Origin: a bacterium
Lineage (GTDB): Bacteria; Muiribacteriota; UBA9980
DNA: 51,918 bases
Reading direction: 5' to 3'
NCBI GenBank assembly: GCA_029571125.1
Contig: JAKPTH010000325.1
Location: 1-51,918 of the forward strand
Position numbers and translations under genes: made by a program. This document shows positions 7,947 through 35,271 of the stretch, piece after piece; position 1 is the stretch's first letter, and every line of letters starts with the position of its first letter. The notes under the pieces are model-generated. The model was given only the letters and a program-made list of their open reading frames with translations. It had not been told where the DNA came from and ran no database searches.

Positions 7947-8470
7947 GCGGGGCCATAAATACGATATACGACTATATAGATTCTCTCAGCGTAATGGTAT
8001 TGTCGACGGCCGGTTTCAACGAGGCCGAATGCGAAGCGGCTAAAGACACGCCCGCCGGCGGCGGTCTTTCGTTTCCAGCCGGCGCGCGGCCGCCCGCTTT
8101 AAGATCTACGCCGGTTTTTTTCGCCCGCAAAAACAATAGCTTTTACTTCATTTCAGTGGCTAAAACGGTTCACGCGCGAAACATATCACAAAATCCTTAT
8201 ATATCGGCCGCGCTCACCAAAAACTACCGCAACTACCGCGACATAAAGGGCGTTCAGCTGTTCGGCCATTGCAGTGAGATAGAAGGCTTAACCGGCATAG
8301 CGAGGGCGGCCATGGTATATTTTTCTAAATTTTCCGACCTGAAAAGTTTTATGCAGATGGATCTCTTGAAATCCGCCGTGGACGTCAAATGGTACGAACT
8401 CGCCGCAGAAAAGCTTATATATACCGATAACACCATAAGATTCGGCTACAAGGAAGAAGTGGAATTATAG
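7943..8470 (+). CDS. Pyridoxamine 5'-phosphate oxidase-like FMN-binding family protein
   Basis: ATGA overlap with the preceding gene. The pattern MVLSTAG...PVFFARKNNSFYFISVAKTVHARNISQNPYISAAL matches the split-barrel PNPOx-like layout. Confidence 0.55.
   Translation: MSGAINTIYDYIDSLSVMVLSTAGFNEAECEAAKDTPAGGGLSFPAGARPPALRSTPVFFARKNNSFYFISVAKTVHARNISQNPYISAALTKNYRNYRDIKGVQLFGHCSEIEGLTGIARAAMVYFSKFSDLKSFMQMDLLKSAVDVKWYELAAEKLIYTDNTIRFGYKEEVEL
8203..8460. repeat. Left copy of a ~245-bp direct repeat (3' end of the PNPOx-like gene); partner at 35028..35271
   Basis: By-eye alignment of GCGCTCAC..CTACCGCGACATAAAGGGCGTTCAGCT..GCAGTGAGATAGAAGGCTTAACCGGCATAG..AAGGAAGAAGT with 35028-35271. There are a handful of substitutions plus 9-nt and 11-nt deletions in the right copy. 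Confidence 0.9.
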
Positions 8471-8547
8471 TTCCTTTTCATTTTGTATAGGTAATATTAT
8501 TGGGTTCCTAATTTTTTTCGGGGATGCGTACGAAAATCGCGCCGGTA

Positions 8548-10083
8548 TTATCGATCGAATGAATCTATCGCCGAAAGCGCCTGCCAGTCAGTCGAAGACG
8601 CCTCGGATAAAGTTTTCAATGACGCCGCGACCTTCGCGACGTAATCCGGCGTTCTCATGCCGACCAGCACCGCGCTCACGCCGCCGCTGGCCGCCAGAGC
8701 CCTTACCGCTATATCGGACAGATCGGCCGCGGCCGAATAAATTGGCGAGATAGCAGCCAGTTTTTCTTTAATTTTTAAAACCGTCTTTAAATGCTCCGAC
8801 CTGAAATGCTTTCCTATAAGCTCAAAAACGGCATAAGCCTCGTTTATATAAACCGATATTTCAGCTTCGGCTTTTTTATCTTTCAAAACGCCTTTTTTCA
8901 AATTATCGAGAAAATATTGCGCGCGCGGCGAAAAATAGCCGCTCATGAAAGATTCGAAATTCGAAATATTAGCGAATTCTTTCCACTTCGAATTAAGCTG
9001 CCCGTGGACGAACACATTTTCGAAAATTATCTCAGCCTTCCCGCGGGCGCTTTCAGACAGCCTTTCGATCGAATCCAGAAGGTTCTCTTCGAGTATGCCG
9101 ATGTCGCGTACCGCGGAATTTATGGCGTTTTCGGCATTTTTGAAATCGTATCCGGCGTGACCCGCGACGCGCGGATCGGCGAGCCGTATGTGCGAGCCTT
9201 TAAAGAAAGCGTTCAGCGGCCTGTTTATAAGAACGCCGATATTTTTCGACCGGGCGAGTTCTAAAAGCGTCAGGCCGTTATCCTGATTTTTTTCAGAAGC
9301 CGCGCCGCGCTCGAATAAATTCATCGGAAATTCGATAACGCCGAAATGATTATCTGGCGATATATTTTCAGCGATCGAAATAACGCGGCCGAGCGGTGTA
9401 AAATTATAAGCGGCGCTAGCAGCAGGAAATGTGTTCGAGCTAATGCCGTAATATTTTATGCGCCCTTTTTTAACTTCGGTTTCGAGGTACAGGAAAGCTT
9501 TTTCGATCCGCGAATAATATTCGCGACGCGCCGTTTCCATATTCATTCCGTCTTTTTCAGCACGCATAAGGTAATATTCGGGATTATGCAGAAGGTAAAT
9601 ATCTATGGCTTCCAGATCAAGTCTGGCAAGGCTTCCTGCGATCTGGTCCTCTAAAAAATCCGGATGGATGCAGTGCTCGAGGCCGTCCGCGTATTCGACA
9701 AGATCCGGCCATGGCGCGCCTTCTTTTTTTCTGGCGGCGCTGGCGTCATAATTTTTACCCTGAATGTAGCCGCCCTTGGTTACAACGACGATATCGCCGC
9801 GCTTCATTTCGCCGCTTCCGATCAATTCGCGCATGACGCTTCCGGCCAGAAGCTCCGAACCGCCGTCCATGTAGTTGGCGCTCGTGTCAATTAAGTTGAT
9901 CCCGGCGCGCAAAGCTTTGATCATAGCGTCTCTGTGGGTTTGAGACGCCGCATCGACTCTGTAGCAGCCAAATCCGGCGGCCGACACCGAATAACCGGTT
10001 TTACCCAGGGCGCGGGAGTTTATTAAGTTGCGGGCCGATAAATCGAGGGCTGGTTTAGTATCTATGTTATTAATAATTTTCAC
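8548..10083 (-). CDS. Aldo/keto reductase family oxidoreductase with a ~180-aa C-terminal extension
   Basis: LGKTGYSVSAAGFGCYRV...ALRAGINLIDTSANYMDGGSE...IDIYLLHNP...YYGISSN are classic AKR motifs. The C-terminal third has no motif I recognise. Confidence 0.8.
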   Translation of the reverse strand: MKIINNIDTKPALDLSARNLINSRALGKTGYSVSAAGFGCYRVDAASQTHRDAMIKALRAGINLIDTSANYMDGGSELLAGSVMRELIGSGEMKRGDIVVVTKGGYIQGKNYDASAARKKEGAPWPDLVEYADGLEHCIHPDFLEDQIAGSLARLDLEAIDIYLLHNPEYYLMRAEKDGMNMETARREYYSRIEKAFLYLETEVKKGRIKYYGISSNTFPAASAAYNFTPLGRVISIAENISPDNHFGVIEFPMNLFERGAASEKNQDNGLTLLELARSKNIGVLINRPLNAFFKGSHIRLADPRVAGHAGYDFKNAENAINSAVRDIGILEENLLDSIERLSESARGKAEIIFENVFVHGQLNSKWKEFANISNFESFMSGYFSPRAQYFLDNLKKGVLKDKKAEAEISVYINEAYAVFELIGKHFRSEHLKTVLKIKEKLAAISPIYSAAADLSDIAVRALAASGGVSAVLVGMRTPDYVAKVAASLKTLSEASSTDWQALSAIDSFDR

Positions 10084-10251
10084 GGGGAGATTATAACATA
10101 TTAACGGGACGGCGTAAAGGAATGAAAAATACTTGGAAACGATTTATTCGAAAATATTTTCGATAATTTTATAAAATTTATTGACATCAAACTCTAAAAA
10201 TGCCATTATATATTGTGGTATTAAAAAAACCACACAAAGGAGTGAATTGCC

Positions 10252-10614
10252 ATGTTCGGAGAATTTGTAAAGCAAAAGCGTATTGAATGCGAACTTTCGC
10301 TCAGGGAATTCTGCCGCCGCCTCAACGAGGACGCCAGCAACTGGAGCAAAATAGAACGCGGAAAGCTCCCGCCGCCTCAAGATATTGAAAAAATCGAAAT
10401 GATCTCCGGCATCTTAAACATAAAAAAAGACTCTCAAGAGTGGAATAATCTGTTAGACTACGCCAGAATTGACGCCGGCATCATACCTGATTACGTTATG
10501 AAAGACAGTGAATTAATGGCGGTCCTGCCTCTTTTTTTTAGGACCGTCGACAACATTAAACCTACCCGCGAAGAACTTCTGAAAATCATCGAAGCCATAA
10601 AAAAAGGAAAATGA
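10252..10614 (+). CDS. XRE-family helix-turn-helix transcriptional regulator
   Basis: FGEFVKQKRIECELSLREFCRRLNEDASNWSKIERGK is a Cro/C1-type HTH. TTGACA at 10181 lies upstream. The region is AT-rich. Confidence 0.8.
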   Translation: MFGEFVKQKRIECELSLREFCRRLNEDASNWSKIERGKLPPPQDIEKIEMISGILNIKKDSQEWNNLLDYARIDAGIIPDYVMKDSELMAVLPLFFRTVDNIKPTREELLKIIEAIKKGK

Positions 10615-10669
10615 TCATGGCAGATTTTTTATCGTTCAAATGTCCTTATATCAGTAAAGCGCAAATAAT

Positions 10670-11014
10670 TTGCAGCATGTTCTACATAAAAAAATATATG
10701 AAGAAATGAATTTTAACAATGAATACGAATACATAGATTTTATTCAAGGCATCGACGAAAAAGAATACAAATTTTTTGAATGGCAGGCTAATTATTTCGC
10801 TGGAAATCTACTTGTGCCCCGCTATGAACTCTCGCTTGAAATAAATAAGATCATGTCAATTTTTGAGATCGATCCTGTATTATCGGGAATTCTCATTGAA
10901 AACCCGGTACAGGTTCTTGAAGGGATTTCTTCTTCAATATCTAAAAAATTCGGCGTATCGGACGAAGTCATAATTCGAAGAGCCAACGATGAAAAGCTCT
11001 GGCCTCCTACATAG
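10670..11014 (+). pseudogene. ImmA/IrrE-family metallopeptidase remnant (N-terminus and HExxH lost)
   Basis: It retains the family C-terminal motif FFEWQANYFAGNLLVPR. Where HExxH is expected, the frame reads stop-SANNLQHVLH (stop at 10655-10657). A separate 33-codon ORF (10611..10712) in another frame looks like the detached N-terminus (ADFLSFKCPYISKAQI). Confidence 0.45.
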
Positions 11015-11082
11015 ACTAATTTCTTTCAAATCAATCTTTTTCAACTTCCGAACAAATTAAAATTAAACTTCCAATCTCATAT

Positions 11083-11120
11083 ATACAAAAATATTTGTAT
11101 ATTTAAAATATTTTTGTATA
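11083..11120 (+). promoter_or_regulatory. Putative enhancer (UAS): two TTTGTATA boxes 19 bp apart
   Basis: TATACAAAAATATTTGTATA (inverted arms TATACAAA/TTTGTATA) with TTTGTATA at 11094-11101 and again at 11113-11120. The same two-box unit recurs at 15656/15675 and 33407/33426. Confidence 0.55.
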
Positions 11121-11228
11121 TTTAACCTGCTTCATTTTCTGTTTTCTCCGCTTGTTTTATCGTATCAAAACTCCCATATAGCTTATGACAGTCCCGTTTG
11201 AAGGAATTTCAGCCGCGGCAGCGGCGCA

Positions 11229-11244
11229 TGGCATAACACTTGCT
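11229..11244 (+). promoter_or_regulatory. Sigma-54 (-24/-12) promoter
   Basis: TGGCATAACACTTGCT matches TGGCACG-N4-TTGCW with correct GG/GC spacing. It lies 43 nt upstream of ATG 11287 and inside the 5' extension of the tracked ORF, which argues for the downstream start. Confidence 0.6.
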
Positions 11245-11286
11245 CATACGTTAGCATCCGTTTTATTTTTATACGGGGGCGATATA

Positions 11287-13941
11287 ATGAAAATCATCGA
11301 GAAGTTATTGTTTAATATTTTTCTTATAGCGATTTTTTCGGTTTCCATTCTTTTTAACACAACGGCCGGCGCAGCCGAACAGACGATTCAGCTTCGCGAC
11401 GGCTTCAACTTCGCGGCGGTTACCGTCACGCCGGATTCAGCAACGCAGGCCATCATGACCGCGAACCCGTCGATAAAAGAAATATATTTATACTCGGCTG
11501 CGGCAGGAAATTTTTTAAGTGCCGCGGCAGGCGATTTTTCTTCACTCGCCCCGGGCCGCGGCTATATAATCATAAGCAAAGGCGCGGCGGTGTTAAAGCT
11601 TCAGGGCACTGAGATCACGCAGGCCGGCGACATCAAATTAAAAGCCGGCTTCAATCTGAGCGGGTTCTCAAAAACTATCGTGCCCATAAAATTCAGCGAG
11701 TTGATATCCGCGAACCCCGCCGTCAAAGGCATTTACAAATGGAGCGCCGCGGCGGGCGGATTCGTGCAGGTGCTTCGCGTAAACGGCCTTCCGGCGGCCA
11801 TCGACGGGGCAGACCCTGAAATTATCTCTGGTCAATCATATTTTATAAATATGGCGGCGGATGCCATTTTAAATTACGACTCGGGCTCGATCAAAATAAC
11901 TGCTGGCGGGACCGAACCGCAGCCTCCGATCACGCCTTCGCCTTTATCGCTGGCGCTGTCGATAACCGAAATTTCCGTCGAGCAGGGCGGCGTTTACGAT
12001 CTGTCGCGAATAAAGGCGGCCGTCAAATATTCCGACGGCTCGACCAGGGAAGTTTCGGCAGTTTATACCTGCGATTCCGGCGCGATATTTGGAAACTTAT
12101 ACCAGGCGCCGGCCTCGCCCGGGACGGCGTCCATAACGGCGTCATATACTGAGGGCTCCTCGGCGCTCAAATGCGTTTTGAAACTAAACATAATCGAAAA
12201 ACCTCTGGACATAGCCGATTATTTCCCGCTGCGCCGAGAAGACCTTTATTACTACTCAAACGGCCAAGATGTCATCGACTACCGAATAACCGGCGAATAT
12301 TACGCGGCCGGAGTTCTGGCGACCAAATTCGCTTCGACCAACGGGACTTACGATCACTACAGGCTCGACGAAACCGGGCTTTATTACTGCGACACCGCGG
12401 CCGACAGGCCGACGAAACTATGCAATAAAAATCCGAAATTAAACGAAAGCTGCTTCAGTTACGTTAAAAACTCTCTCGGGCAGGCCGTATATACAAGCAC
12501 TCTCCTCTCGCGCGACGCTTACAGCGTTCACGGCGGATTGTTCGATGACGTGCTGGTAATAGAAAACAAAATGACGATGAACGGCGTAACGTCATCGATG
12601 TATTTCTTTTTCGCCAGGGGCGTCGGGCTGATAAGATACGCCACCAGTTTGATGCAGTTCGAATTCGCCGGCGGCCTCGTCGGCGGCCGTTCATACGCGC
12701 CCGTAAAGAAGAAATGGACGTTTTTGATATACTCGTGCGGCGACAACGATCGCGGCGACATAAGCCCCACTCTTATCAACGAGATAAAGGGCTATCGGAA
12801 CACAGATATCGAAAACGACGCCAACATAGTGGTACAGCTGTCGCCGTCTAAAAGTTATTACTCAAATATTTACAACTCCGAATTTTACAATATAACCGCG
12901 TCGCGTTATTATTTAAAAGACGGCGTGTTCTACCGAAATTACTCCAGGACTGGAGTGCATACCAATAACGGCGACCCGAACGACATTTACGGCTTTTTAA
13001 ACTGGGGCGCGACCGTTTTTCCCGCGGAGCATTACGCTATATTCATTTCGGCTCATGGCAGCGGGATCATATCGTGGACCGGATTCAGCGCGGCGGGGCC
13101 GAAACGCTCGATAGCCTATGACGACCATCCATACAATTACCTGAGCGCGGCCGAATATAAGAACGTGTTCAGTTCGATCAAGAACAAAATAGGCAAAAAG
13201 ATCGACATAATAACATTCGATTCGTGCGTAATGGGCATGCTCGAGGTCGCCTATCAGCTAAGGGACTGCGCCGATCATTTCGTAGCGTCCGAGGCGGTGG
13301 CGCTCGAGCGCGACACGGCGATGTTTTCGCAAAAATTCATGGCGCTCGCCGATAAATCGCCTCTCGCGGTATCGAAAGCGATAGTGGACTCATATATCGA
13401 TTCGGCAAAGCTCGCCGGAAAAAGCCTTACCATGTCCGCGGTCGATCTTGCAAAAGTATCCGCCATGGGTGGTTTTATAAGCTCGATAGCCTCGATGTGG
13501 CTTTCAAAATCAATGAATGAGAGCGAGATAGCGGCGTTCGTAAACGCCATCTATAAATCGCAGCGGTTCGGACCTGCGCCGTATAACGAATCCGCGGCGA
13601 CCATGCTGTATGATTTCTCGACGAGCTATATCGACGTCTTCGATTTCGCCGCGCAATTATCTCTGAACTCCGGAGCGGGCGATCTCAAAAATTACGCCGA
13701 TTCGATCTTAAATTATAAAAACACCTTGATAACCCACAGCCGGGCCACCGGCATTTATTATCCGCGCGCCGCGGGGCTCACGATATTCATTCCGAAGTTT
13801 TCGACGCAGTGGTATAACAGCGATATGACAAGCAACTACATCCGGGAGCAGTATATGTATTTAACCGACTTCGGCTCCTCGACGATGTGGGGTTCTTTCC
13901 TGGACGACTGGTCGGGGTTTCTTTACAGGAACGGGTGGTAA
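11287..13941 (+). CDS. Secreted clostripain-like (peptidase family C11) cysteine protease with N-terminal Ig-like (Big_2-type) domains
   Basis: Start moved to M35 of ORF 11185..13941 (GGGGG RBS 7 nt upstream). Signal peptide MKIIEKLLFNIFLIAIFSVSILFNTTAGAAE. C11 hallmarks are WTFLIYSCGDND, YAIFISAHGSG (His-Gly) and ITFDSCVMGMLEVAYQLRD (catalytic Cys). An Ig-like segment is ISVEQGGVYDLSRIKAAVKYSDGSTREVSAVYTC. Confidence 0.75.
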   Translation: MKIIEKLLFNIFLIAIFSVSILFNTTAGAAEQTIQLRDGFNFAAVTVTPDSATQAIMTANPSIKEIYLYSAAAGNFLSAAAGDFSSLAPGRGYIIISKGAAVLKLQGTEITQAGDIKLKAGFNLSGFSKTIVPIKFSELISANPAVKGIYKWSAAAGGFVQVLRVNGLPAAIDGADPEIISGQSYFINMAADAILNYDSGSIKITAGGTEPQPPITPSPLSLALSITEISVEQGGVYDLSRIKAAVKYSDGSTREVSAVYTCDSGAIFGNLYQAPASPGTASITASYTEGSSALKCVLKLNIIEKPLDIADYFPLRREDLYYYSNGQDVIDYRITGEYYAAGVLATKFASTNGTYDHYRLDETGLYYCDTAADRPTKLCNKNPKLNESCFSYVKNSLGQAVYTSTLLSRDAYSVHGGLFDDVLVIENKMTMNGVTSSMYFFFARGVGLIRYATSLMQFEFAGGLVGGRSYAPVKKKWTFLIYSCGDNDRGDISPTLINEIKGYRNTDIENDANIVVQLSPSKSYYSNIYNSEFYNITASRYYLKDGVFYRNYSRTGVHTNNGDPNDIYGFLNWGATVFPAEHYAIFISAHGSGIISWTGFSAAGPKRSIAYDDHPYNYLSAAEYKNVFSSIKNKIGKKIDIITFDSCVMGMLEVAYQLRDCADHFVASEAVALERDTAMFSQKFMALADKSPLAVSKAIVDSYIDSAKLAGKSLTMSAVDLAKVSAMGGFISSIASMWLSKSMNESEIAAFVNAIYKSQRFGPAPYNESAATMLYDFSTSYIDVFDFAAQLSLNSGAGDLKNYADSILNYKNTLITHSRATGIYYPRAAGLTIFIPKFSTQWYNSDMTSNYIREQYMYLTDFGSSTMWGSFLDDWSGFLYRNGW

Positions 13942-14016
13942 CATAATAAAATAAGGAGGTGAAAAACTCTAAATAAATCAAAAATATTACCAAAACTCTA
14001 AATATTAATTTGAAAG

Positions 14017-15567
14017 GTGACCATGATGAAATTAATAAAAGCGCAGTTAATAATTTTAATTCTTTTTTTGATGTTCGCTTCGAGCGCCGCAGCGGGCGAA
14101 ATAAAAGACGTCGTCAAAGGCATGGAAAATTCAGTCGTATCGGTAAAAGTCACGAACGAAAAAGGCCAAAAGATATCAGGAAGCGGGTTTTGCTACATAT
14201 CATCTCAATATATCGTAACTAATTATCATGTAATCGAAGACGCGGTTAAAATAACGGTAAGTTTGAAAAGCGGCAAAACGTATAACGTCAAAGACATTTA
14301 TAAATCCGACAAAGAAAGAGATATAGCCATTTTAAAGATCGCCGGCTCGGAGCTCACCCCTATAGAAAGATCAGAAGGTGTCGAAGTCGGCGAAAAAATC
14401 ATCGTAATAGGTAATCCTCTCGGACTTTCGTTTTCTGTGTCAGACGGAATAGTAAGTTCTTTCAGGGGCAAGGAAGCGAGTTTCGACAGGGCGATACAGA
14501 TAACCGCGCCCATTTCTCCGGGAAACAGCGGCGGCCCGCTGCTAGATGAGAACGCGAAATTGCTCGGAATAACGACTTATTCATTCAAGGACGGCCAGAA
14601 TTTGAACTTCGCCGTCCCGGCCGAATATATTGAAAAAATGATCAACCCTCAAAAAGTTGAAACGGTTAAATTAACCAGCGCCCAGGCCCAGTGCGCTGAT
14701 TGCAAAAAAGAAATCAAAAATTACGATGAAATGAAATTCTGTCCTTACTGCGGCGCAAAACTTGATAAAGCGGACGTCAAAATTGAAAATTCATCGGTCA
14801 GCGTAAACGACAGAAAAAAACTATTCGATAAACTTTTAAACCTGTGCCGCAAAAACATATCTGGAATGACGAATTTCTTTACCGTGCGCGACGCCGTAAA
14901 AATTATCAGAACTCTGAACGAGATCAACGAAAATAATTATATAGTGGAGTCGATGCTCTCTATAGCCTATACTATCGACGGAGACAAAAAATTATCAAAA
15001 AAATATCTGGATAAGGCCGTTTTAAATCAAAAAAGAAGCGCTTCAGGCTCGGACGAAATTTTGCTCAGGGCGCAGATATTATACGAACACACATTCGGCG
15101 ACGACACGGCGGCACAGAATAAAATGTCGGCGGCCAAAAACCGGGAAGGCGATCTCAAGAAATTTTATGAAAATTTATCGGAACATGGAAAAGACGGCCA
15201 TATAGTTTCGCCGCTCAGTTTTGAAAAAGTATCGAAATTAAAGGGAGAGCCTAAATACAAGACCGCAATGATAATCGGAGATTATAACTTCGAACTGTCA
15301 ATTTACGAAAGATACAACGAGTTCGAAGAATATTACAGATACCTGGTGCTGATATTTTTGAAGGATGTTTACATAGGGCAGATAAACTTTATCAGAATGC
15401 TGCCAAGCGAGCTTATCATCAGAGGCGAGGCCATAAAAGCCCTTAACAGGAACCACCAGGAAGCCGTAACCGCCTGGAAAAAATTTAAAGAAGATCCCGA
15501 ATATAAGGCCATCGAAAGGTTTTTTCCTGAATTTGACGGTTTGGGATGGATAATAGAATTAAAATAA
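14017..15567 (+). CDS. Secreted trypsin-like (S1C/HtrA-like) serine protease fused to a zinc ribbon and an unknown C-terminal domain
   Basis: Signal peptide KLIKAQLIILILFLMFASSAAAGE. Catalytic triad context is IVTNYHVIEDA / DIAILKI / GNSGGPLLD. The zinc ribbon is CADCKKEIKNYDEMKFCPYCGAKL. About 250 aa at the C-terminus have no recognisable motif. The true start is probably ATG 14023 or 14026. Confidence 0.75.
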   Translation: MTMMKLIKAQLIILILFLMFASSAAAGEIKDVVKGMENSVVSVKVTNEKGQKISGSGFCYISSQYIVTNYHVIEDAVKITVSLKSGKTYNVKDIYKSDKERDIAILKIAGSELTPIERSEGVEVGEKIIVIGNPLGLSFSVSDGIVSSFRGKEASFDRAIQITAPISPGNSGGPLLDENAKLLGITTYSFKDGQNLNFAVPAEYIEKMINPQKVETVKLTSAQAQCADCKKEIKNYDEMKFCPYCGAKLDKADVKIENSSVSVNDRKKLFDKLLNLCRKNISGMTNFFTVRDAVKIIRTLNEINENNYIVESMLSIAYTIDGDKKLSKKYLDKAVLNQKRSASGSDEILLRAQILYEHTFGDDTAAQNKMSAAKNREGDLKKFYENLSEHGKDGHIVSPLSFEKVSKLKGEPKYKTAMIIGDYNFELSIYERYNEFEEYYRYLVLIFLKDVYIGQINFIRMLPSELIIRGEAIKALNRNHQEAVTAWKKFKEDPEYKAIERFFPEFDGLGWIIELK

Positions 15568-15586
15568 AAACTTTAATAATTCTTTA

Positions 15587-15640
15587 AAACCGCTTTTTAA
15601 GGCCAGTATTCAAAAGCCTTATGAAGCGGTTTTTCTTTTC
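15587..15640 (+). terminator. Probable intrinsic terminator of the protease operon
   Basis: AAAACCGCTT (15587-15596) pairs with AAGCGGTTTT (15624-15633), with an inner AAGGC/GCCTT pairing, followed by TTTTCTTTTC. Confidence 0.5.
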
Positions 15641-15648
15641 TTCATTAT

Positions 15649-15827: not shown

Positions 15828-15902
15828 TTGTTAACTGCATGACGTTATTAAGCGGCCGCTGAAGTATTAATAATCATAATTTTAAATCCAAAGGAGAATT
15901 CT

Positions 15903-26587: not shown

Positions 26588-29089
26588 ATGAACGACAGAA
26601 TAATACAGGCGCTCAACAGGCTGTTCGAGCGCTCGCGCATAGTCTTCTGGAACGACGCCAGGCGCGAGCTGCGCGCCGAATTCGACGCGGTCGAGATAGC
26701 GGGAGTCAGCAAAGCCGAGATCAAAAACAACGAGTTCGGCCTTAAATACAGGATACTGCGCGAGGAGCCGGCGTCTAAATTCCTGCTGTACCGCGAAGGA
26801 CCTCCGCCCGCCGCCGACAGGGACAACTGGCTGCTCGACCTCGAGCTCGCCGGATGCGAGTTCCGCGCCGACCAGGCGTCGCTGTGGCTCGACGAGATCG
26901 GGCTCGGACAGGCGTTCGCCGGGCTCGTCGAAAGCCACGCTTTCTTCTTCAATTCGGCGAAGAGACGAGACTCGCTTAAAAACTCCGTCAGCCAGGCCGA
27001 CTCGCCGGGCGCAGTCCGGCTTAAAATGCTCGCCGTGTGCGCCGCGTGCGACGCCGACATCGAGGAGATCGCGCTCGCGCTTTTAAACGAATCGGCGCTC
27101 GCGCAGGAAGATAAATTCAACCTGATCAAAAAATCAGCGCTGGACGGGTTCCTGTTCGAAACGCTCGGCAGGATATTCGCCTATTCATCGCCGGAGCCCG
27201 GAATAAAGGACTTCGGCATCGAGCTGTTCAAATCGTGCTACGCAATGGCGTGCGGCCGCAAATACAGCCTTAACGCCGACGCGCTCGTCCTGTTCAAAAG
27301 ATGGAAGGATGACCGCAGATACTCGGAAGCGTTCGAAACGTTCTCGGCGGAATGCGGCGAAATAATCAATATAGCTCAGGAGCTGGCCGGAAAAGACCTC
27401 AGACCGCTGATAGAAGTCGATTACTTCAGGCAGATCGACGAAAAGATCGTCGGCGACCTTATCGGAATAACCGTACAGAGGTCGGCCTCGGCCGCGGATG
27501 TCGCCGGCTGGTGCAGGGCGCGCCGCTGCTGCCGGTGGTATGATAATTACAGGCATCTTTACGAGGCGGTCAGCCACGCCGCTCAGTTCATGAGCGCGCT
27601 CGACTCCGCCGATATAAGCGTCGGCTCGATGGAAAGCGCCGTCACGCGCTACTGCAGCCACTGGTTCAAGATCGACCAGCACTACCGCAAGTTCATACAT
27701 AACGCCAGGCAGTCCGGCGAAATAACCATGCTGGAGCCGCTGCTCGACCTGGTCGAAAACCTTTACACCAATAATTTCCTGCTCAGGCTCAACGACCACT
27801 GGCAGGAGGCTTTCGACGCCGCCGCCGGACGGGCCGCGGGCCAGATCACTCCGCAGCGAAACTTTTTCGATAAATTCATAAAGCCTTTCCTGGACCGCGA
27901 AAATAAAATCTTCGTGATAATATCCGACGCGATGCGATACGAGATCGGCGAGGAACTGGCGTGCCTTATCAATAACGAGGACCGCTACGACGCGTCCGTC
28001 GAGCCCGTGCTCGCCATGACGCCCAGCTGCACACAGCTTTGCATGGGCGCGCTCCTTCCGAACAAAACGCTCGAGATAGCGCCGGACGACACCGGAACGG
28101 TGATGGTGGATTCGCAGAACTCCCAGGGCACGCAGAACCGCTCCAGGATACTGGCCGCAGCGGTGCCGGACGGGGCGGCGGCGGTGCGCGCCGAGGACGT
28201 TCTCAATATGAATAAAACCGCCTGCGCCTCGCTCATACGCGACAACAAAGTGGTCTATATATACCATAACGTCATCGACAGCACCGGCGACAAGCGCGAA
28301 AGCGAAGATAAGGTCTTCGACGCCGCCGAGGACGCGCTTAAAGAACTGGTGCGGCTGGTCAAAAAACTGACCGCGGGCAACGCAAATAATATTATCGTGA
28401 CCGCCGACCACGGCTTTATTTATCAGCACCGGCCGGTCGGCGAGGCGGATTTTACTGAATGCGATCTCTCCGCCGATACGGTCTATTACCGCGACAGGAG
28501 GTTCATAGTCGGCAAAAACCTCACGGAGCGGCCGGGCTTGAAAAAATTCAGCGCGGCGGCGCTAGGGCTGGCCGGCGAAAGCGACATACTGCTTCCCAGG
28601 TCCATAGGCAGGCTGAGGCTCAAGGGCGGCGGCAGCCGGTTCGTCCACGGCGGTGCCTCGCTGCAGGAGATAACCGTGCCGGTGGTCAGGATAAATAAAA
28701 AACGCCAGAGCGACGTCTCGCAGGTCGAAGTGCAGATCATCGGCGGCGCGGACTCGGTTATAACCTCCGGCCAGCTCGCCGTCGTATTCTACCAGAAACA
28801 GCCGGTCAGCGAAAAGGTAAAAGCCAGAAAGTTAATGGCGGGCATATATAACGGGGCGGGCGAGCTCATCTCCAACAGCCGCGAGATCGATTTCGACCTG
28901 GCCCACGAAAACAGCCGCAGCCGAGAAATAACGGTCAATTTCATACTCACGCGCAAGGCCGACGAGGCGAATAACCAGCAGGTGACGCTCAGGCTCGACG
29001 AAAAACATTCGGCCACTTCGCATTACAAGGAATACTGCTCGCGCGCCTACACCGTGCGGCGCGCATTTACAAGCGATTTTGATCTTTAG
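26588..29089 (+). CDS. pglZ: BREX alkaline-phosphatase-superfamily protein PglZ
   Basis: 833 aa. The PglZ-domain core is IFVIISDAMRYEIGEEL ... IIVTADHGFIY ... FVHGGASLQEITVPVV. Confidence 0.9.
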   Translation: MNDRIIQALNRLFERSRIVFWNDARRELRAEFDAVEIAGVSKAEIKNNEFGLKYRILREEPASKFLLYREGPPPAADRDNWLLDLELAGCEFRADQASLWLDEIGLGQAFAGLVESHAFFFNSAKRRDSLKNSVSQADSPGAVRLKMLAVCAACDADIEEIALALLNESALAQEDKFNLIKKSALDGFLFETLGRIFAYSSPEPGIKDFGIELFKSCYAMACGRKYSLNADALVLFKRWKDDRRYSEAFETFSAECGEIINIAQELAGKDLRPLIEVDYFRQIDEKIVGDLIGITVQRSASAADVAGWCRARRCCRWYDNYRHLYEAVSHAAQFMSALDSADISVGSMESAVTRYCSHWFKIDQHYRKFIHNARQSGEITMLEPLLDLVENLYTNNFLLRLNDHWQEAFDAAAGRAAGQITPQRNFFDKFIKPFLDRENKIFVIISDAMRYEIGEELACLINNEDRYDASVEPVLAMTPSCTQLCMGALLPNKTLEIAPDDTGTVMVDSQNSQGTQNRSRILAAAVPDGAAAVRAEDVLNMNKTACASLIRDNKVVYIYHNVIDSTGDKRESEDKVFDAAEDALKELVRLVKKLTAGNANNIIVTADHGFIYQHRPVGEADFTECDLSADTVYYRDRRFIVGKNLTERPGLKKFSAAALGLAGESDILLPRSIGRLRLKGGGSRFVHGGASLQEITVPVVRINKKRQSDVSQVEVQIIGGADSVITSGQLAVVFYQKQPVSEKVKARKLMAGIYNGAGELISNSREIDFDLAHENSRSREITVNFILTRKADEANNQQVTLRLDEKHSATSHYKEYCSRAYTVRRAFTSDFDL

Positions 29090-29109
29090 AACAAGGAAGG
29101 TCGGAAGTT

Positions 29110-31185
29110 ATGAACGCGCTCGATACCAAGATAAATCAACATTTCCAGGGGCTAGTGGTCCGCAAGGACCTGGTCAAGCAGGTCAAGGGCAACGCCATAG
29201 TGCCCTCATACGTGCTCGAGTACCTGCTCGGCCAGTACTGCGCGACCAGCGACGAGGCCAGCATCCAGTCAGGGATCCAGACCGTCAAGGAGATCCTCAA
29301 GAACCATTACGTGCACCGTAATGAAAGCGGCCTGGTGCGCTCGCTTATCAAGGAAAAAGGCCGCTACAAGGTCATCGACAAGATCAGCGTCTCGCTCAAC
29401 GACAAGACCGACGCCTACGAAGCAGACTTCGCCAATCTCGGCATAAGCAAGGTGCTGGTGGATTCCGCCACCGTCAAGGCGCACCCGCGCCTCCTGGTCA
29501 GCGGCGTATGGTGCATATCCGACATCGAATACGACTTCAGGGAGGACAAGAACATATGCCCCTGGGTCCTTTCGACGATCAAGCCGATACAGCTTTCGCA
29601 GTTCGACATGAACGCGTATATCGACGCGCGAGCTAAATTCACCACCGACGAGTGGATAGATATTTTGATCCAGAGCATAGGGTTCAATCCGGAACTGTTC
29701 GGCAGGAGAAGCAAATTAAGCCAGCTGGTGCGGCTGATCCCATACTGCGAGAGAAATTACAACCTGATGGAGCTCGGGCCGAAGGGCACCGGCAAATCCC
29801 ACATTTATTCTGAATTTTCGCCGCACGGCATACTCATTTCAGGCGGCGAGGTCACCGTGCCGAAATTATTCGTCAACAACAGCACCGGCCGAATCGGCCT
29901 GGTTGGCTACTGGGACGCCGTGGCTTTCGACGAGTTCGCCGGAAAGCAGAAAAAGGTCGACAAGGCGCTTGTCGATATCATGAAAAACTACATGGCGAAT
30001 AAATCTTTCTCGCGCGGCGTCGAAATGCTCGGCGCCGAGGCGTCGATGGTCTTCGTGGGCAACACGCAGCATACGGTCCCTTATATGCTCAAACACTCCG
30101 ACCTGTTCGACGACCTTCCTGAAAAATATCATGATTCGGCATTTTTAGACCGCGTCCATTTTTACATACCCGGCTGGGAGGTCGATATCATACGCGGCGA
30201 AATGTTCTCCGACGGCTACGGCTTCGTCGTCGACTACCTCGCCGAAGTGCTGCGCTCGCTCAGAAATCACGATTTTTCCGACCGGTATCAAAAGCACTTC
30301 TCGCTTTCGGCCGACATCTCGACGCGCGACCGCGACGGCATCAATAAAACCTTCTCCGGCATGATGAAGTTATTATTCCCCAACGGCGAGGCGGCGCCGG
30401 CGGAGATCGAAGAAATACTCAGATTCTCCATCGAAGGCCGCAAACGCGTCAAGGACCAGCTGATGAGGATCGATTCCACTTACGCGGCGGTCCGGTTCGC
30501 TTATCTGAACAACGCGACCGGTGACGAAAAACCAGTCAAAACGCTCGAGGAGGAAGAGTATCCGAATTTTTACCACATGAAGGCGCACTCGGGCAACGAA
30601 AGGGAGAAATTCGAAAAAGCCGGCGGCGGCGATCACGCCGACGAAGCGGCCGCGCAATCCGCGGGCAGATACGAACCGAAACAGCTGGCCGAAAAACATA
30701 TCGTTTTCAACGAAAACCAGCGAGGCCTTTCATTCGACGAACTTTTGTGGCCTTATATTAAGGGCGCGAAGAAAATAACCATAACGGACGCCTATCTGCG
30801 CGCGTTTTACCAGATCAAGAACCTTATGGAATTGATGGAGACCATAGCCAGAAACAAGCCCGAAGATGAGGAAATGGCCGTGCACGTCATAACTTCGCCG
30901 AGCGATTTCAGCGACTCTCAGCAGATCGAATTTTTCGAGAAAATAATGAATTCATGCTCAGGCGTCGGAATAGATTTCACATACGAGCTCGACGACAACA
31001 AGGCCATACACGCCCGGCACATAATAACCGACCACGGCTGGAAGATACTTCTCGACCGCGGCCTCGACGTCTTTCAATACTATGACGCCAAAGACGCCTT
31101 CATTTTCATGAACCGCCTGCAGAAAATGCGTCCCTGCAAAGCGTTCGAGGTTACTTTCATCAAGGTTAAAAACGACCAGAAGTAA
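29110..31185 (+). CDS. brxL: BREX AAA+ protein BrxL (Lon-like ATPase family) with an atypical C-terminal domain
   Basis: The conserved BrxL N-terminus is NAIVPSYVLEYLLGQYC. Walker A is ELGPKGTGKSHIY and Walker B is VAFDEFAG. The last ~165 aa (from 30691) resemble an MITD1-type MIT_C/PLD-fold domain (AIHARHIITDHGWKILLDRGLDVFQ) rather than Lon S16. Confidence 0.85.
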   Translation: MNALDTKINQHFQGLVVRKDLVKQVKGNAIVPSYVLEYLLGQYCATSDEASIQSGIQTVKEILKNHYVHRNESGLVRSLIKEKGRYKVIDKISVSLNDKTDAYEADFANLGISKVLVDSATVKAHPRLLVSGVWCISDIEYDFREDKNICPWVLSTIKPIQLSQFDMNAYIDARAKFTTDEWIDILIQSIGFNPELFGRRSKLSQLVRLIPYCERNYNLMELGPKGTGKSHIYSEFSPHGILISGGEVTVPKLFVNNSTGRIGLVGYWDAVAFDEFAGKQKKVDKALVDIMKNYMANKSFSRGVEMLGAEASMVFVGNTQHTVPYMLKHSDLFDDLPEKYHDSAFLDRVHFYIPGWEVDIIRGEMFSDGYGFVVDYLAEVLRSLRNHDFSDRYQKHFSLSADISTRDRDGINKTFSGMMKLLFPNGEAAPAEIEEILRFSIEGRKRVKDQLMRIDSTYAAVRFAYLNNATGDEKPVKTLEEEEYPNFYHMKAHSGNEREKFEKAGGGDHADEAAAQSAGRYEPKQLAEKHIVFNENQRGLSFDELLWPYIKGAKKITITDAYLRAFYQIKNLMELMETIARNKPEDEEMAVHVITSPSDFSDSQQIEFFEKIMNSCSGVGIDFTYELDDNKAIHARHIITDHGWKILLDRGLDVFQYYDAKDAFIFMNRLQKMRPCKAFEVTFIKVKNDQK

Positions 31186-31275
31186 AAAGTCATTAATAAA
31201 GTTCACTATAAAACGAGAAAACCTTTGTAATATTAGTAATTCGATTAAGTAATACATTTTAACCTGATTTATTAT

Positions 31276-31758
31276 ATGCCGGACCGTAAAAAAACAACCG
31301 AATATATTCTTCGACTTGCTCGCGGCGTTTTCATTACGATTGCGGTCCTGTGGTGCTGCGGAGCAACGGCTTCGCTTTTCGCTCGGTTTCATTTAGTTTT
31401 TGAACTGAGCTGCCAATTCTATATTCAATATTTTGCATTTACTTCGGTCGCGGCGCTTATTTTCGCTTTCGGGCGTGAATGGAAAAAAAACTCTGCAATG
31501 GCTGTTTTTGCATTTTATTGCGGCGCGGCGCTCGCGCCTTTTATGCCTTATAAAGCGCCGGTAACCGCCGCGGCCTGCCTTAAAAATTCCGCGGAAGGTT
31601 TTGGGCTCTTTCCGAGCTGGCCTTCGCACATGCCGCCGCTGCGGATTCCGATCGACCATTGCCTTTACTCAGCAGGCGTCACTATCCTGAAAGTTTTCAA
31701 GGGCCGGTTCATCGGGTCGGACCATTTTCCGATAATTGTCGATTTTATGGTTGAATGA
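31276..31758 (+). pseudogene. Endonuclease/exonuclease/phosphatase (EEP) family membrane protein with the catalytic core deleted
   Basis: About 100 aa of TM helices are joined directly to the last ~45 aa of an EEP domain (PLRIPIDHCLYSAGVTILKVFKGRFIGSDHFPIIVDF). The ~200-aa middle of the domain is absent. Confidence 0.5.
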
Positions 31759-31809
31759 AAATTACAACGCTTCAAAGATAATTTAATCAAATATCAGAAA
31801 GGCGAAATC

Positions 31810-33345
<1,536 letters not shown>

Positions 33346-33399
33346 GACGGGCTGGCAGCAGGCCTCATAATAACAACAGACGGATTTCTCTGAATACAT

Positions 33400-33433
33400 A
33401 AAAATATTTGAGTCATATAAATATTTTTGTATA
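33400..33433 (+). promoter_or_regulatory. Putative enhancer (UAS): two-box unit, first box degenerate
   Basis: AAAAATATTTGAGTCATATAAATATTTTTGTATA with TTTGAGTC at 33407-33414 and TTTGTATA at 33426-33433, the same 19-bp phasing as the other two loci. Confidence 0.5.
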
Positions 33434-33537
33434 TAACAACCGGCTTTTTTAAGTTTTTTTAATATAAACTCAATATAATCTAAAATATTATCCCGCCCGG
33501 GCGAACAAATCGCCCGCTGCGCGGCCTCTAACAAAAA

Positions 33538-33553
33538 CGGCATGCAAATTGCA
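33538..33553 (+). promoter_or_regulatory. Sigma-54 (-24/-12) promoter
   Basis: CGGCATGCAAATTGCA has GGCATG-N4-TTGCA with correct spacing. It lies 106 bp downstream of the UAS and about 250 nt upstream of ATG 33807. Confidence 0.55.
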
Positions 33554-33806
33554 TTTGAGTTAGCGGCCGCGTTTGTTATTTTCATCTATTAAAAATAATA
33601 AGTTTTTAATGCTTCGCATAGTATAACAAAGCCGTTTAAAAACTAATTGTTCACTCGACACTTCGTTTAACGGCGCCGTAAACGGTCAAAACATTTAATT
33701 TCGGAAATTTTTGATTCAAGCGCATACGCGGAGTTGTTCACTGTTTTTTCTCGCCGGCTTGAGTTAAAATTAAATCAGAGCAGATAATAAGGAAGTTGTG
33801 ATTTTT

Positions 33807-34745
33807 ATGAAATTTTCTAAAAAATTCAAAATCCAAAATTATTCAATCGACGCTTCGCTCGACGGCACCGCGCTTTCGATCAGCAGCGGAGCGCGGGCGT
33901 TAACGGCATTGAAAAGATCGCTAATCAACATTATCGAACTGATCGAAAACATAATGCGAAGCGCGGCAGACCGGGACATGAGGCTGGAAGTCAAATTCCG
34001 TGTTTTAAAAGACGCGTTCGGGATGTATTTTTCGGATACCGGTATCATAAAGATCGACTCGGCTCTGGTAGGGGCTCCCGGCGAAATGGAAAAGATCATA
34101 TTTCACGAAGCCGTTCATTATATATTCGAAACTTATTATAAAGATAGCTGGTTTTATGAGTTATTCCAGGAGGCCGCGTCCGTATATTTCCAGAATCACT
34201 ATTACAGCGACGATTATATCTTTCATAAACTCGTCGCGGACAGATTCGGTCCCAATCAATTCGCGGCGGCTTACTACATCCTCAATAAATTAAACGAAAC
34301 GCGTGACTACGCTCTCAGCTTAATTTTCCGGGACAACCCGGACGCAAAAACAGTCAGGCGCCAGCGAAAGATCGTCAACGCGCTTATCGACGACGAGTAC
34401 TCAATGACGAAAGCGCTTTACGACCGTCTGATCAAAAGCATCGACATAGTGCTGATAGACGACCGGCCCAGAAAGGGCGGCGGCGGCTACGGAGTCATTT
34501 ACAGAAAAAAGCAGATGTATTCGCCGTTCATAGCGTACCTGCCGCCGCGCAGCCTCAACAATCTCGATTACAAAGATATTTATGTGCATGTAGCAAAAAT
34601 ACCAGAACGCTTCTCGAATAAATTCATACTGCGCGAGCCGGACGACGACTACCTCGAAACACTCGCTACTATATACGCTCAAGCATCGGTGAGCATACCG
34701 GAGATCAAGGAAAAAGTATTTAACTCGAGCCTGTTGTATAGCTGA
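33807..34745 (+). CDS. Hypothetical cytoplasmic protein with an HExxH zinc-metallopeptidase-like motif
   Basis: ATG 33807 is preferred over GTG 33798 (RBS AAGGAAG is 11 nt upstream of the ATG and only 2 nt from the GTG). There is no signal peptide. The motif is EKIIFHEAVHYIFE. I recognise no other family signature. Confidence 0.6.
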   Translation: MKFSKKFKIQNYSIDASLDGTALSISSGARALTALKRSLINIIELIENIMRSAADRDMRLEVKFRVLKDAFGMYFSDTGIIKIDSALVGAPGEMEKIIFHEAVHYIFETYYKDSWFYELFQEAASVYFQNHYYSDDYIFHKLVADRFGPNQFAAAYYILNKLNETRDYALSLIFRDNPDAKTVRRQRKIVNALIDDEYSMTKALYDRLIKSIDIVLIDDRPRKGGGGYGVIYRKKQMYSPFIAYLPPRSLNNLDYKDIYVHVAKIPERFSNKFILREPDDDYLETLATIYAQASVSIPEIKEKVFNSSLLYS

Positions 34746-35027
34746 GCCGCACGGTCTATTTTTTGGGTTTGAATTCAATTTCTATCATAACATATCGGGC
34801 GCTGAAAATCAAAGGAGAAAACAGGCGATAAAATGAACCTAAAATGATGTCCTATCGCTATTTTAATTAAAATAATGAGCCTGACATGAAAAATATAAAA
34901 TCACCTATAACGCTGGCGCAAAACAGAAAAACGGCTGCAATTTTACATTCAACGCGCTTTCTGACAGTTAAACCGGGCACGGTCGCATTTATTTTGTTGC
35001 CAGTCTTAGCTCTGCAGGCGGCGTTTT

Positions 35028-35271
35028 TCATCGGCACGCCGCGCTCACAAAAAACTACCGCGACATAAAGGGCGTTCAGCTATTCGACCATTGCAGTGAG
35101 ATAGAAGGCTTAACCGGCATAGTGAGGGCGGCCATGGTATATTTTTCTAAATTTTCCGACCTGAAAAGTTTTATGCAGATGGATCTCTTGAAATCCGCCG
35201 TGGTACGAACCCGCCGCCGAAAAGCTTATATATACCGATAATACCATAAGATTCGGCTAAAAGGAAGAAGT
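35028..35271 (+). pseudogene. Decayed duplicate of the 3' end of the PNPOx-like gene (right repeat copy)
   Basis: It aligns to 8203-8460. Relative to the intact copy it lacks 9 nt (one AACTACCGC unit) and 11 nt (ACGTCAAATGG), which breaks the frame, and it carries a TAC->TAA change (GGCTACAAGG -> GGCTAAAAGG). Confidence 0.85.

Follow-up and report, generated by a model that had tools for sequence, protein, structure and literature searches.

The locus described here is best read as a rearrangement-prone, variable hotspot of the chromosome that carries a recombination relic and a complete type I BREX system, and not as an integrated mobile island. It lies in a stretch of 51,918 nucleotides (the window, 52 kb) in which the 3' part of a PNPOx-like gene occurs twice; a sequence-only reading had taken the segment between the two copies for an island integrated at the 3' end of this gene. 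The comparative data are metagenome contigs throughout, from few relatives.

The right copy is a decayed fragment of the PNPOx-like gene

When the window was compared with itself, the segment at 8203-8460 was found again at 35028-35271 in direct orientation. The repeat search divided this pair into a block of 151 nt with 98% identity (8231-8381 / 35053-35203) and a block of 71 nt with 94% identity (8390-8460 / 35201-35271), and gave no other long repeats in the 52 kb window. The left copy (8203..8460, plus strand), functional according to self-comparison, repeat search and alignment with orthologues, belongs to an intact PNPOx-like gene of 175 aa (7943..8470, plus strand), which has a weak Pfam PNPOx_N match and is syntenic in L001-L005 and L023-L028. 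This gene closes a conserved block of ThrRS, ferredoxin-like and PNPOx-like genes. Its family is small (16 homologues), and nearly all members have an EEV[E/D]L-like C-terminus, as the left copy does, while none has an RQ end.

The right copy (35028..35271, maybe to ~35285 through an in-frame TAG; plus strand) was delimited by repeat search, alignments, translation and the independent assembly L008, which crosses it in the same context with 99.8% identity; several other assemblies end inside the repeat, among them L006 and L007, which stop at 35155/6. It lacks 9 nt, one unit of a tandem ACTACCGC motif, and 11 nt between 35200 and 35201. The orthologues of L001 and L002 have both stretches, which shows that the right copy has lost them. 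The reading frame shifts at the 11-nt gap, and at position 35260 a TAC codon is changed to the stop TAA. The sequence-only reading had already described a repeated 3' end whose right copy is frame-broken by losses of 9 and 11 nt and is the decaying one, and our alignments agree with it on both points.

Beyond 8460 and 35271 the copies differ for 7 bases and then both read ATAG, a stop in the same frame. The following bases of the right copy (GGCCCGCG) resemble the post-stop bases of L001/L004 (GGCCGGCG), so the copied piece may extend ~25 nt further, through the stop codon. Nothing resembling the 5' half of the gene was found upstream of 35028, indicating that the right copy is a fragment and not a decayed paralogue. 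Its identity is 95% to the left copy vs 85% to L001/L004, and it shares derived states of the species' own PNPOx-like gene. It thus arose within the lineage, after the linkage of AKR, XRE, ImmA and C11 genes that is seen in L004.

Most genes between the copies are conserved neighbours

The gene list of the sequence-only reading turned out to be correct, from the aldo/keto reductase (AKR), the XRE/ImmA remnant and the proteases to type I BREX, the PIN toxin-antitoxin pair, the gutted EEP gene, the CARF-type activator and the HExxH protein. It had considered all of them accessory, which does not hold for the AKR, EEP, activator, C11 and HExxH genes. The AKR gene (8548..10083, minus strand; Pfam) adjoins the PNPOx-like gene in 7 related loci (L001, L003, L004, L005, L024, L025, L028), and is a conserved neighbour rather than island cargo. 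L001 is collinear with positions 1-10122 of the window at 86% identity, and then again from 36129. The PNPOx-like 3' end of the window is closest to L001/L004 (88-89%) and its AKR to L025 (87% aa vs 78-80%).

Next to the AKR gene, an XRE-type HTH gene (10252-10614, plus strand) and a truncated ImmA/IrrE-like gene (10670-11014, plus strand) were identified by Pfam, and this pair (10252..11014) is collinear with AKR in L004 at ~82% identity. The protease/TPR stretch on the plus strand (11185..17000; Pfam) contains a C11 clostripain-like protease (from 11185, likely true start 11288), a trypsin-like protease (14017-15567) and a TPR protein (15903-17000). After BREX follow three more plus-strand genes. 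The EEP-family gene (31276..31758; Pfam) has an internal deletion of ~450 nt and encodes 160 aa vs 323 aa in relatives, with split tblastn matches to the intact genes of L005, L024, L025 and L023. The RtcR-like CARF-AAA+-HTH sigma-54 activator (31810..33345; Pfam, and PADLOC RtcR_PspF2 with E = 1.4e-153) has orthologues in L023, L024, L005 and L028. The HExxH protein (33798..34745), a conserved partner of the C11 protease, had no family match in Pfam or PADLOC. For instance, in L023 the C11 homologue lies beside RtcR-like and HExxH genes, the HExxH orthologue (57% identical) directly follows the C11 gene, and the order is PNPOx-EEP-RtcR-like-C11-HExxH without AKR. Together with XRE/ImmA, these genes are syntenic across L004, L005, L023, L024, L025 and L028. 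To judge from the gene order in the distant relative, the ancestral neighbours of the PNPOx-like gene include EEP, the RtcR-like activator, the C11 protease and the HExxH gene.

The 52 kb window was found to contain no gene for an integrase or recombinase and no tRNA gene. Every major ORF was scanned with Pfam, as were both flanks and four long antisense ORFs; the result agrees with the sequence-only reading, which had seen no integrase or recombinase inside. The gaps in 8471-35310 are all <= 565 nt.

A complete type I BREX system

Type I BREX is defined by six conserved core genes (PMC9240713, PMC13326643). All six were found in one plus-strand cluster (17431..31185) with full-length PADLOC matches (E values 3e-60 to 0) and Pfam support: brxA (17431-18057; BrxA), brxB (18054-18695; BrxB), brxC (18811-22305; BrxC domains), pglX (22329-25937; Eco57I/N6_Mtase), pglZ (26588-29089; PglZ) and brxL (29110-31185; BrxL_N/BrxL_ATPase). 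Between pglX and pglZ lie a low-GC antitoxin-like ORF and a PIN toxin (25975..26570, plus strand; Pfam PIN, ORFs, GC 33-37%).

The sequence-only reading had proposed comparing composition inside and outside the copies, and it turned out that only BREX deviates (GC 51.5%; tetranucleotide correlation 0.84 vs >= 0.92 elsewhere). Its slot and promoter are those of the AlbA_2 gene in L024/L005, and strain X24, ~97% identical to the window, also has BREX. From these comparisons we infer that BREX is a separate, older horizontal acquisition, filling a pre-existing promoter-plus-gene slot. This phage-defence system would be an ordinary swapped-in cassette.

Presence and absence among strains, and the variable hotspot

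By comparing empty and filled forms, we delimited a segment of 25,080 bp (10121..35200) that some strains ~99% identical to the window carry and others lack. Its limits are not those of the repeat: it stops at the AKR promoter on one side and within the right copy on the other. L019-L022, X1-X3, X5 and X24 have the filled form. In the empty forms L015 and L010, 10120 is joined to the PNPOx fragment and both PNPOx-like pieces are kept; in L015, with flanks of 99.2% identity, the joint is to PNPOx nt 8378. This empty junction is also present in runs X8, X9 and X10, and the runs come from two studies. There are two empty haplotypes, E and E2; the fragment begins at the identical base in both (8378 equivalent), next to unrelated sequence on the left, and no more than 3 nt separate this edge from the 11-nt gap of the filled form. 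The 25-kb polymorphism, which has other end points, is an event separate from the origin of the repeat. Of the proposal that a BREX-bearing segment was inserted between the repeats, the presence or absence of a large segment in near-identical strains is retained, and the limits must be moved to 10121-35200.

The left seam of the variable region is hard. It coincides with a nearly invariant 37-nt element upstream of AKR (10084..10120, minus strand), a probable promoter read by eye as TTTACG, 17 nt and TGTTATAAT on the minus strand, with no hairpin and no second copy in the window; six different right-hand contexts begin within 10119-10126. The region is anchored on the left by the conserved AKR promoter (~10120) and on the right by the conserved mature esterase part (~36130); between these, the content is very different in relatives, and BREX and the AlbA_2 gene share one slot, as is expected of a hotspot. 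The defence-like cargo seen in ~12 related loci in the collections searched comprises BREX, HicAB and DUF433/DUF5615 toxin-antitoxin pairs, and the AlbA_2 gene.

Two seams are sharp: one after ...CGGCGTAAAG at 10119-10126 in at least six haplotypes, the other between PNPOx nt 8377 and 8378 in both empty haplotypes, beside the 11-nt gap of the filled form. They might be target sites of a recombinase encoded elsewhere, so that the locus would be an integron-like cassette-exchange site with cargo beside the AKR promoter and no linked mobility gene, which we consider very unlikely. If it were true, defence and other cargo would be loaded without a linked mobility gene.

Origin of the right copy

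At the right side, upstream of the fragment, there is a 5'-end remnant of an esterase gene (34835..35027, plus strand), identified by alignment with the L001 esterase and consisting of the upstream region and ~47 leader codons (ORF 34886-35068). Aligned start to start, it matches the N-terminal end of the L001 esterase at 39% identity over 49 aa (score 66 vs 24 +/- 4.6, maximum 60, in 5000 shuffles), and the DNA alignment reaches 35027, exactly where the right copy starts. Downstream of the fragment lies a TspO/MBR gene (35311..35772, minus strand; Pfam), whose homology to relatives covers only ~35313-35796; its relatives (82-85% identity) sit elsewhere, in a Macro-TspO locus, and the gene is a translocated patch. 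Then follows the intact CBM20-esterase (36011..37276, plus strand; Pfam), whose mature part (from ~36130) is the conserved right flank, with homology starting at 36129 with L001 and at 36140 with L025. The esterase leader varies between haplotypes, and that of the intact gene is of another type than the remnant's.

Thus, between 35027 and 35028, the esterase 5' remnant is fused head to tail with the PNPOx-like 3' fragment, and the intact PNPOx-like gene (7943) lies upstream and the intact esterase (36011) downstream. This arrangement, in which the distal gene contributes a 5' piece, the proximal gene a 3' piece and the intact parents lie outside, is the geometry of a tandem-duplication-type joint. 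From the anatomy, synteny, empty forms, composition and absence of a recombinase we infer an order of events and a mechanism, in which the right copy is probably a non-functional relic of illegitimate recombination in a chromosomal variable region rather than an attachment site. The duplication unit would run from PNPOx nt 8203 to esterase codon ~47, copy 1 being 8203-35027 and copy 2 35028 to ~36150. Such a joint could have formed by unequal exchange, after which most of copy 2 was lost and replaced; alternatively, two different haplotypes of the locus may have been joined by one illegitimate crossover (or by Campbell-type insertion of a circularised fragment). Most genes between the copies (the sigma-54/RtcR-like protease module, EEP and AKR) would be old residents. 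Several observations sit uneasily with this explanation. Apart from the PNPOx fragment, the repeat search of the window gave no second copy of 8471-35027, so copy 2 is without any copy 1 gene, and the esterase leader type differs from the remnant; a same-chromosome tandem duplication therefore needs extra deletion and replacement steps. The PNPOx-TspO-esterase haplotype needed by the two-haplotype crossover was not found in the loci and runs examined. Besides, random breakage does not account for the shared 8378-equivalent start in E/E2 near the 11-nt gap, and at least five haplotypes break within 10119-10126, hinting at a site preference.

The integrase-free version of the island idea, structurally a special case of the relic explanation, is a Campbell-type insertion in which a fragment of a related strain, from PNPOx nt 8203 through AKR and cargo to esterase codon ~47, was circularised and entered the recipient's PNPOx-like 3' end by a single RecA crossover. 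The recipient would have had the PNPOx-like gene followed by TspO-esterase, and the right copy would be its displaced 3' end. One event would cover the joint of esterase remnant and PNPOx together with the differing leader types, and would account for the differing post-stop sequence (TTCC... vs GGCCCGCG, the latter like L001/L004) and for the TAG that the right copy has in frame at the same position. The different closest relatives of the PNPOx-like 3' end (L001/L004) and AKR (L025) also point to a recombination breakpoint near the stop codon. We nevertheless regard it as unlikely, because PNPOx-TspO adjacency was seen in 0 of ~20 loci and in none of the sequencing runs examined, the RQ end in 0/16 homologues, the relatives' TspO is in a different locus, and both copies carry the species' own derived substitutions. 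A two-stage origin is still less probable: an old PNPOx fragment of 83 nt (8378-8460 equivalent) would have lain next to TspO, the arrangement of the empty haplotypes, and would have grown leftwards by ~175 nt in the filled haplotype, through break repair or gene conversion off the intact gene, end-joined to the esterase remnant, with the 11-nt gap as the invasion point. It fits the common left edge of E and E2 with unrelated sequence beyond it, the 11-nt gap within 3 nt of that edge, and the left part of the right copy being nearer the intact gene (~4 differences/164 nt vs 7/85 nt for the empty-form fragment, by hand count), a marginal difference in divergence. However, templated extension should restore the 11 nt, not delete them, and a filled haplotype with the 83-nt fragment alone was not seen. 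Outside transformation, there is little record in bacteria of one-sided conversion in which the second joint is illegitimate.

Classic site-specific integration, in which an integrase-encoding island entered the PNPOx-like 3' end, left the 245-bp repeat as attL/attR and subsequently lost its integrase, would explain a direct repeat of a gene 3' part with one decaying copy, and the presence inside of BREX and of an XRE/ImmA pair, typical of mobile elements. We hold it to be highly improbable. The integrase is absent, with no room for a remnant; usual att cores are ~5-10 times shorter than this repeat; the content is mostly ancestral, syntenic in relatives without the repeat, and host-like in composition except BREX; and the repeat plays no part in the naturally occurring empty form. 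The polarity is also reversed relative to a scar of 3'-end integration, since the native downstream neighbour follows the intact copy and the translocated TspO gene follows the fragment, where only ~10 nt past the stop resemble a native downstream sequence. An uninterrupted flank-to-flank junction, which the sequence-only reading had proposed to look for in relatives, was never found, and the right copy lies at a local duplication-type joint, both of which that reading had named as counting against it. Four defining features are contradicted, and a site-specific integrative island with integrase and att sites was rejected, as a recombinase is missing, the segment has other limits than the repeat, AKR is native after the intact gene, and the cargo is syntenic.

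Comparison with known systems

Like integrase/att islands and ICEs in the 3' ends of tRNA or protein genes, the locus has a direct repeat of a 3' part that brackets ~27 kb with defence genes and an XRE/ImmA pair, one repeat copy being in an intact gene and the other decaying. It differs in that it is without a recombinase, the repeat is ~245 bp, the bracketed genes are mostly ancestral neighbours, the fragment does not precede the gene's native downstream DNA, and the empty site has other end points.

As in other type I BREX systems, the canonical order brxA-brxB-brxC-pglX-pglZ-brxL is kept, with full-length PADLOC and Pfam matches. Here, however, pglX and pglZ are separated by an inserted PIN toxin-antitoxin pair, a central patch of pglX has 30-40% GC, an adjacent BrxR-type regulator is absent, and the promoter in front of the system is one that precedes an unrelated gene in relatives.

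For the novel joint, homology-facilitated illegitimate recombination is one comparison system. With the join points of tandem duplications in the bacterial amplification literature (such as PMC9997567) the locus shares a distal 5' fragment fused to a proximal 3' fragment in the same orientation, with intact parent genes outside, whereas its "copies" now have only the PNPOx-like fragment in common and copy 2, 1.1 kb long, has an esterase leader of another type and a TspO gene that was translocated.

Hotspots of defence genes that lie between core genes of the chromosome are known as core defence hotspots in P. aeruginosa (PMC10250203) and as defence-island hotspots in E. coli (PMC10121019). Compared with these, the present locus is represented by about a dozen metagenomic relatives, too few for hotspot statistics, much of its cargo is non-defence, and the seam on its right falls within coding sequence, that of the esterase signal peptide. 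It resembles them in having conserved anchors, no linked mobility genes, a defence cassette that differs in composition, and a cargo that varies between BREX, the AlbA_2 gene, an ankyrin protein, HicAB, a serpin, or nothing.

The repeat and its right copy

The last third of the PNPOx-like gene (8203-8460) is found again in direct orientation at 35028-35271, and a repeat search of the window gave two blocks between the copies, 151 nt at 98% identity and 71 nt at 94%, and no other long repeat. Stretches of 9 nt and 11 nt are missing from the right copy, and since both are kept in the orthologues of two related loci (L001 and L002), these gaps are deletions in the right copy. The 11-nt gap shifts its reading frame, and at 35260 TAC is changed to TAA. 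The duplication, first noticed by eye, is real: both copies could be aligned, and the same right copy occurs in the same context in an independent assembly (L008, 99.8% identity). Several assemblies end within the repeat. The right copy shares 95% identity with the left copy versus 85% with L001/L004 and has derived states of its own species' PNPOx-like gene, so that it originated within this lineage, after the AKR-XRE-ImmA-C11 linkage. A decayed full PNPOx-like paralogue beside TspO was ruled out, as 34746-35027 resembles the 5' half of the gene neither in DNA nor in protein.

A fragment displaced by integration would retain the gene's original downstream DNA. The sequence-only reading had taken the right copy for such a fragment, and it turned out that the polarity is opposite, with the native neighbour, the conserved AKR gene, following the intact left copy. 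This copy ends in ...GAAGAAGTGGAATTATAG, as in every close relative, and the C-termini of nearly all 16 homologues are EEV[E/D]L-like as in the left copy, with RQ in 0 of 16. The right copy ends in ...GTCCGCCAATAG, and TspO comes next; the native-looking sequence after this copy is limited to the in-frame TAG and about 8 nt beyond it (GGCCCGCG versus GGCCGGCG in L001/L004). TspO of relatives (82-85% identity) lies in a Macro-TspO locus with DNA homology confined to 35313-35796, and none of the contexts retrieved has PNPOx next to TspO. The repeat, though genuine, is no att site.

The TspO ORF with about 25 nt upstream is the sole part common to the relatives (35313-35796; contigs L029-L031), where it lies after a Macro-domain gene. 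In this species, TspO apparently reached the hotspot as a copy of the gene alone.

Gene content of the bracketed DNA

Pfam and PADLOC bore out the gene list read from the sequence. The DNA between the copies contains an AKR gene (8548-10083, minus strand), an XRE gene (from 10252), a truncated ImmA-like gene (from 10670), genes for a C11 protease, a trypsin-like protease and a TPR protein, a complete type I BREX system (brxA-brxB-brxC-pglX-pglZ-brxL, 17431-31185) with a PIN toxin-antitoxin pair between pglX and pglZ (25975-26570), an internally deleted EEP gene, an RtcR-like CARF-AAA+-HTH sigma-54 activator (31810-33345) and an HExxH protein. Exact-protein look-ups of AKR and HExxH gave no match, probably because start codons differ between gene callers. 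As had been noted by eye, no integrase is present: no window ORF on either strand matched a recombinase family, and intergenic gaps within the bracket are at most 565 nt. No tRNA gene or Rfam match was found in the window, so integration into the gene of a tRNA, a tmRNA or a structured RNA was dropped as a reading.

The locus in related genomes

The PNPOx-like family is small, with 16 homologues among 5.8 billion proteins, and the gene is always preceded by ThrRS and a ferredoxin-like gene. L001 (MAG ADurb.Bin243) is collinear with the window from 1 to 10122, through AKR, at 86% identity; then come 2.2 kb encoding an ankyrin protein, and homology is found again from 36129, inside the esterase gene. 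AKR comes after the PNPOx-like gene in L001, L003, L004, L005, L024, L025 and the distant L028, which refutes its assignment to the island cargo. Besides, L004 has the order AKR-XRE-ImmA-C11, matching the window, L023 has PNPOx-EEP-RtcR-like-C11-HExxH without AKR, and L005 and L024 contain AKR, ImmA and C11 remnants, an AlbA_2 gene, an intact EEP gene, a serpin gene and the RtcR-like gene, with no BREX. This synteny shows that most of the supposedly accessory genes are old residents, so the view that everything between the copies is accessory does not hold. For annotation, AKR and the RtcR-like and protease genes belong to the host locus.

Toxin-antitoxin pairs occur elsewhere in the same locus of relatives (L005 705-1314; L024 1952-2528; L028 5324-5921), where HicAB separates the PNPOx-like gene from AKR and DUF433/DUF5615 lies beyond AKR. 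The PNPOx-like 3' end of the window (8203-8470) is closest to L001/L004 (88-89% nt), while AKR (within 8471-10120) is closest to L025 (87% aa versus 78-80% for L001/L004). These differing closest relatives imply that an old recombination event had its breakpoint close to the PNPOx-like stop codon, and that ancestry is mosaic across the PNPOx-like 3' end and AKR.

Strain variation and its seams

A contig of the empty form (L015, 4992 nt) encodes a PNPOx-like protein identical to that of the window and matches the window at 7889-10120 (99.2% identity) and 35203-37947 (99.1%), the two parts being joined as ...GGCGTAAAGG / GTGGCCGTCAAACTGTACGAACC... This junction was also found in L010 and in sequencing runs X8, X9 and X10, from two studies, and the filled form in L019-L022, X1-X3, X5 and X24. 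The junction defines the strain-variable DNA as 10121-35200 (25,080 bp), which ends on the left at the AKR upstream element and on the right inside the right repeat copy. A second empty form (X12/X13) departs from the window at 10126, carries a 101-nt filler and rejoins at the same base of the PNPOx fragment as the first. The junction of 8470 to 35272 that the sequence-only reading had foretold was not seen; the empty forms join 10120 to a point inside the right copy, so the repeat copies are not the segment boundaries, and the bracket is no mobile unit.

The filler shares 8-mers by eye with PNPOx or the esterase leader. A remnant of either was dropped, as local alignment scores did not exceed the background in the rest of the window and an aligner set to 80% likeness stopped short of the filler.

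Six different right-hand contexts start within 10119-10126, straight after a 37-nt element that lies upstream of AKR and hardly varies. The PNPOx fragments of both empty forms start at the identical base with unrelated sequence to the left, and no more than 3 nt separate this start from the 11-nt gap in the filled form. The left part of the right copy seems slightly nearer to the intact gene than its right part, with about 4 differences in 164 nt versus 7 in 85 nt in the empty form by a hand count, a marginal contrast. These points may leave room for a two-stage origin or for a preferred site. If anything here leads to something new, it would be the sharp recurrent seams.

Among genomes sharing about 80% identity with the window, conservation is higher in the 37-nt element (10084-10120, ATTATAACATATTAnCGGGnCGGCGTAAAG) than in the AKR coding sequence. 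The element has a nucleotide-sharp end and, judged by eye, resembles a promoter of AKR. No stable hairpin was found at the 10120 seam (z = 0.85), and the window has no second copy of the 27-nt seam element. A likeness of this seam to Xer/dif or an integron core was unconvincing by eye, and we make no such claim.

The 60-codon ORF at 34886-35068 ends inside the right copy and can be aligned with the N-terminal leader of the L001 esterase, the two starts coinciding (39% identity, 49 aa; score 66 versus 24 +/- 4.6, maximum 60, in 5000 shuffles). The DNA alignment with this esterase, upstream region included, reaches 35027, so the joint at 35027/35028 connects an esterase 5' remnant to the PNPOx-like 3' fragment. 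The intact parents lie outside the joint, the PNPOx-like gene upstream and the esterase downstream, an arrangement like that at the join point of a tandem duplication. In the intact esterase, the leader is of another type than the remnant's, L025-like, and the second copy holds only the fragment, the translocated TspO gene, divergent promoters and this leader. Either most of the second copy would have been lost and replaced, or the joint would have formed between two haplotypes of the locus. On balance we lean towards the right copy being a recombination relic.

The esterase promoter and signal-peptide region is wholly different between haplotypes (window 36011-36140; L001 14200-14386; L025 3876-3972) and the mature part is kept, which places the right seam of the variable region inside coding sequence.

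The BREX cassette

Foreign composition, which had been proposed as a check on the island, is found for BREX only (GC 51.5%; tetranucleotide correlation with the flanks 0.84); the other parts of the bracket are flank-like (GC 43-49%; 0.92-0.94). The window and L024 have in common a promoter-like region (17320-17446) and the sequence from 31198 on, between which L024 has the AlbA_2 gene and the window brxA-brxL. BREX, a canonical type I system (PMC9240713), is a cassette swapped into a pre-existing promoter slot. Its acquisition is not recent, since it is also present in X24, from a strain about 97% identical to the window. X5, X22 and X24 all contain BREX, and no filled haplotype without it was seen within the species in these runs, of which X22 and X24 have patchy coverage. 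Joints reported in the search for BREX-less forms were 21-23-nt side matches of unrelated contigs.

The central patch of pglX (23500-24700) has a GC of 30-40% (52-61% in the rest of the gene), which suggests that the target-recognition region has been exchanged. With a GC of 33-37%, the PIN toxin-antitoxin pair seems to have entered the BREX operon later. A near-consensus sigma-70 promoter-like 31-mer (TTGACA, 17 nt, TATATT with TG) lies upstream of brxA (17323-17353) and of the esterase (35912-35942), and in L024 (4799-4840) and L005 upstream of the AlbA_2 gene.

Putative regulatory sites

An AT-rich palindromic motif (TACAAAAATATTTGTATA...) occurs three times (11084-11132, 15646-15694, 33397-33445), ahead of the genes for the C11 protease, the TPR protein and the HExxH protein. 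Each copy is followed, 93-118 nt downstream, by a sigma-54-like -24/-12 element (TGGCAT-N5-TTGCT and similar; 11229-11244, 15812-15827, 33538-33553). These sites and the RtcR-like activator look like one regulon; in L023, the EEP, RtcR-like, C11 and HExxH genes are contiguous. The C11 gene probably starts at 11288 rather than 11185. Besides, a 69-nt direct repeat (74% identity; 46592-46660 and 47579-47647) containing the palindrome TTGACTTAnGTCAA flanks the ferredoxin gene beside the hybrid-cluster-protein (prismane) gene, and may be a Crp/Fnr-type (HcpR-like) operator.

A variable hotspot

A duplicated gene end alone is poor ground for inferring a mobile island: here the repeat coincides neither with the ends of the strain-variable DNA nor with BREX, the horizontally acquired part, and these two are distinct as well. 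RecA could still delete 26.8 kb between the 151-nt stretches, with loss of AKR and BREX and a frame-broken PNPOx-like gene as the product; this form was not observed. In conclusion, the locus of this uncultured sludge bacterium is a chromosomal variable hotspot, probably of the kind known for defence islands, which have been described as hotspots between core genes (PMC10250203, PMC10121019).
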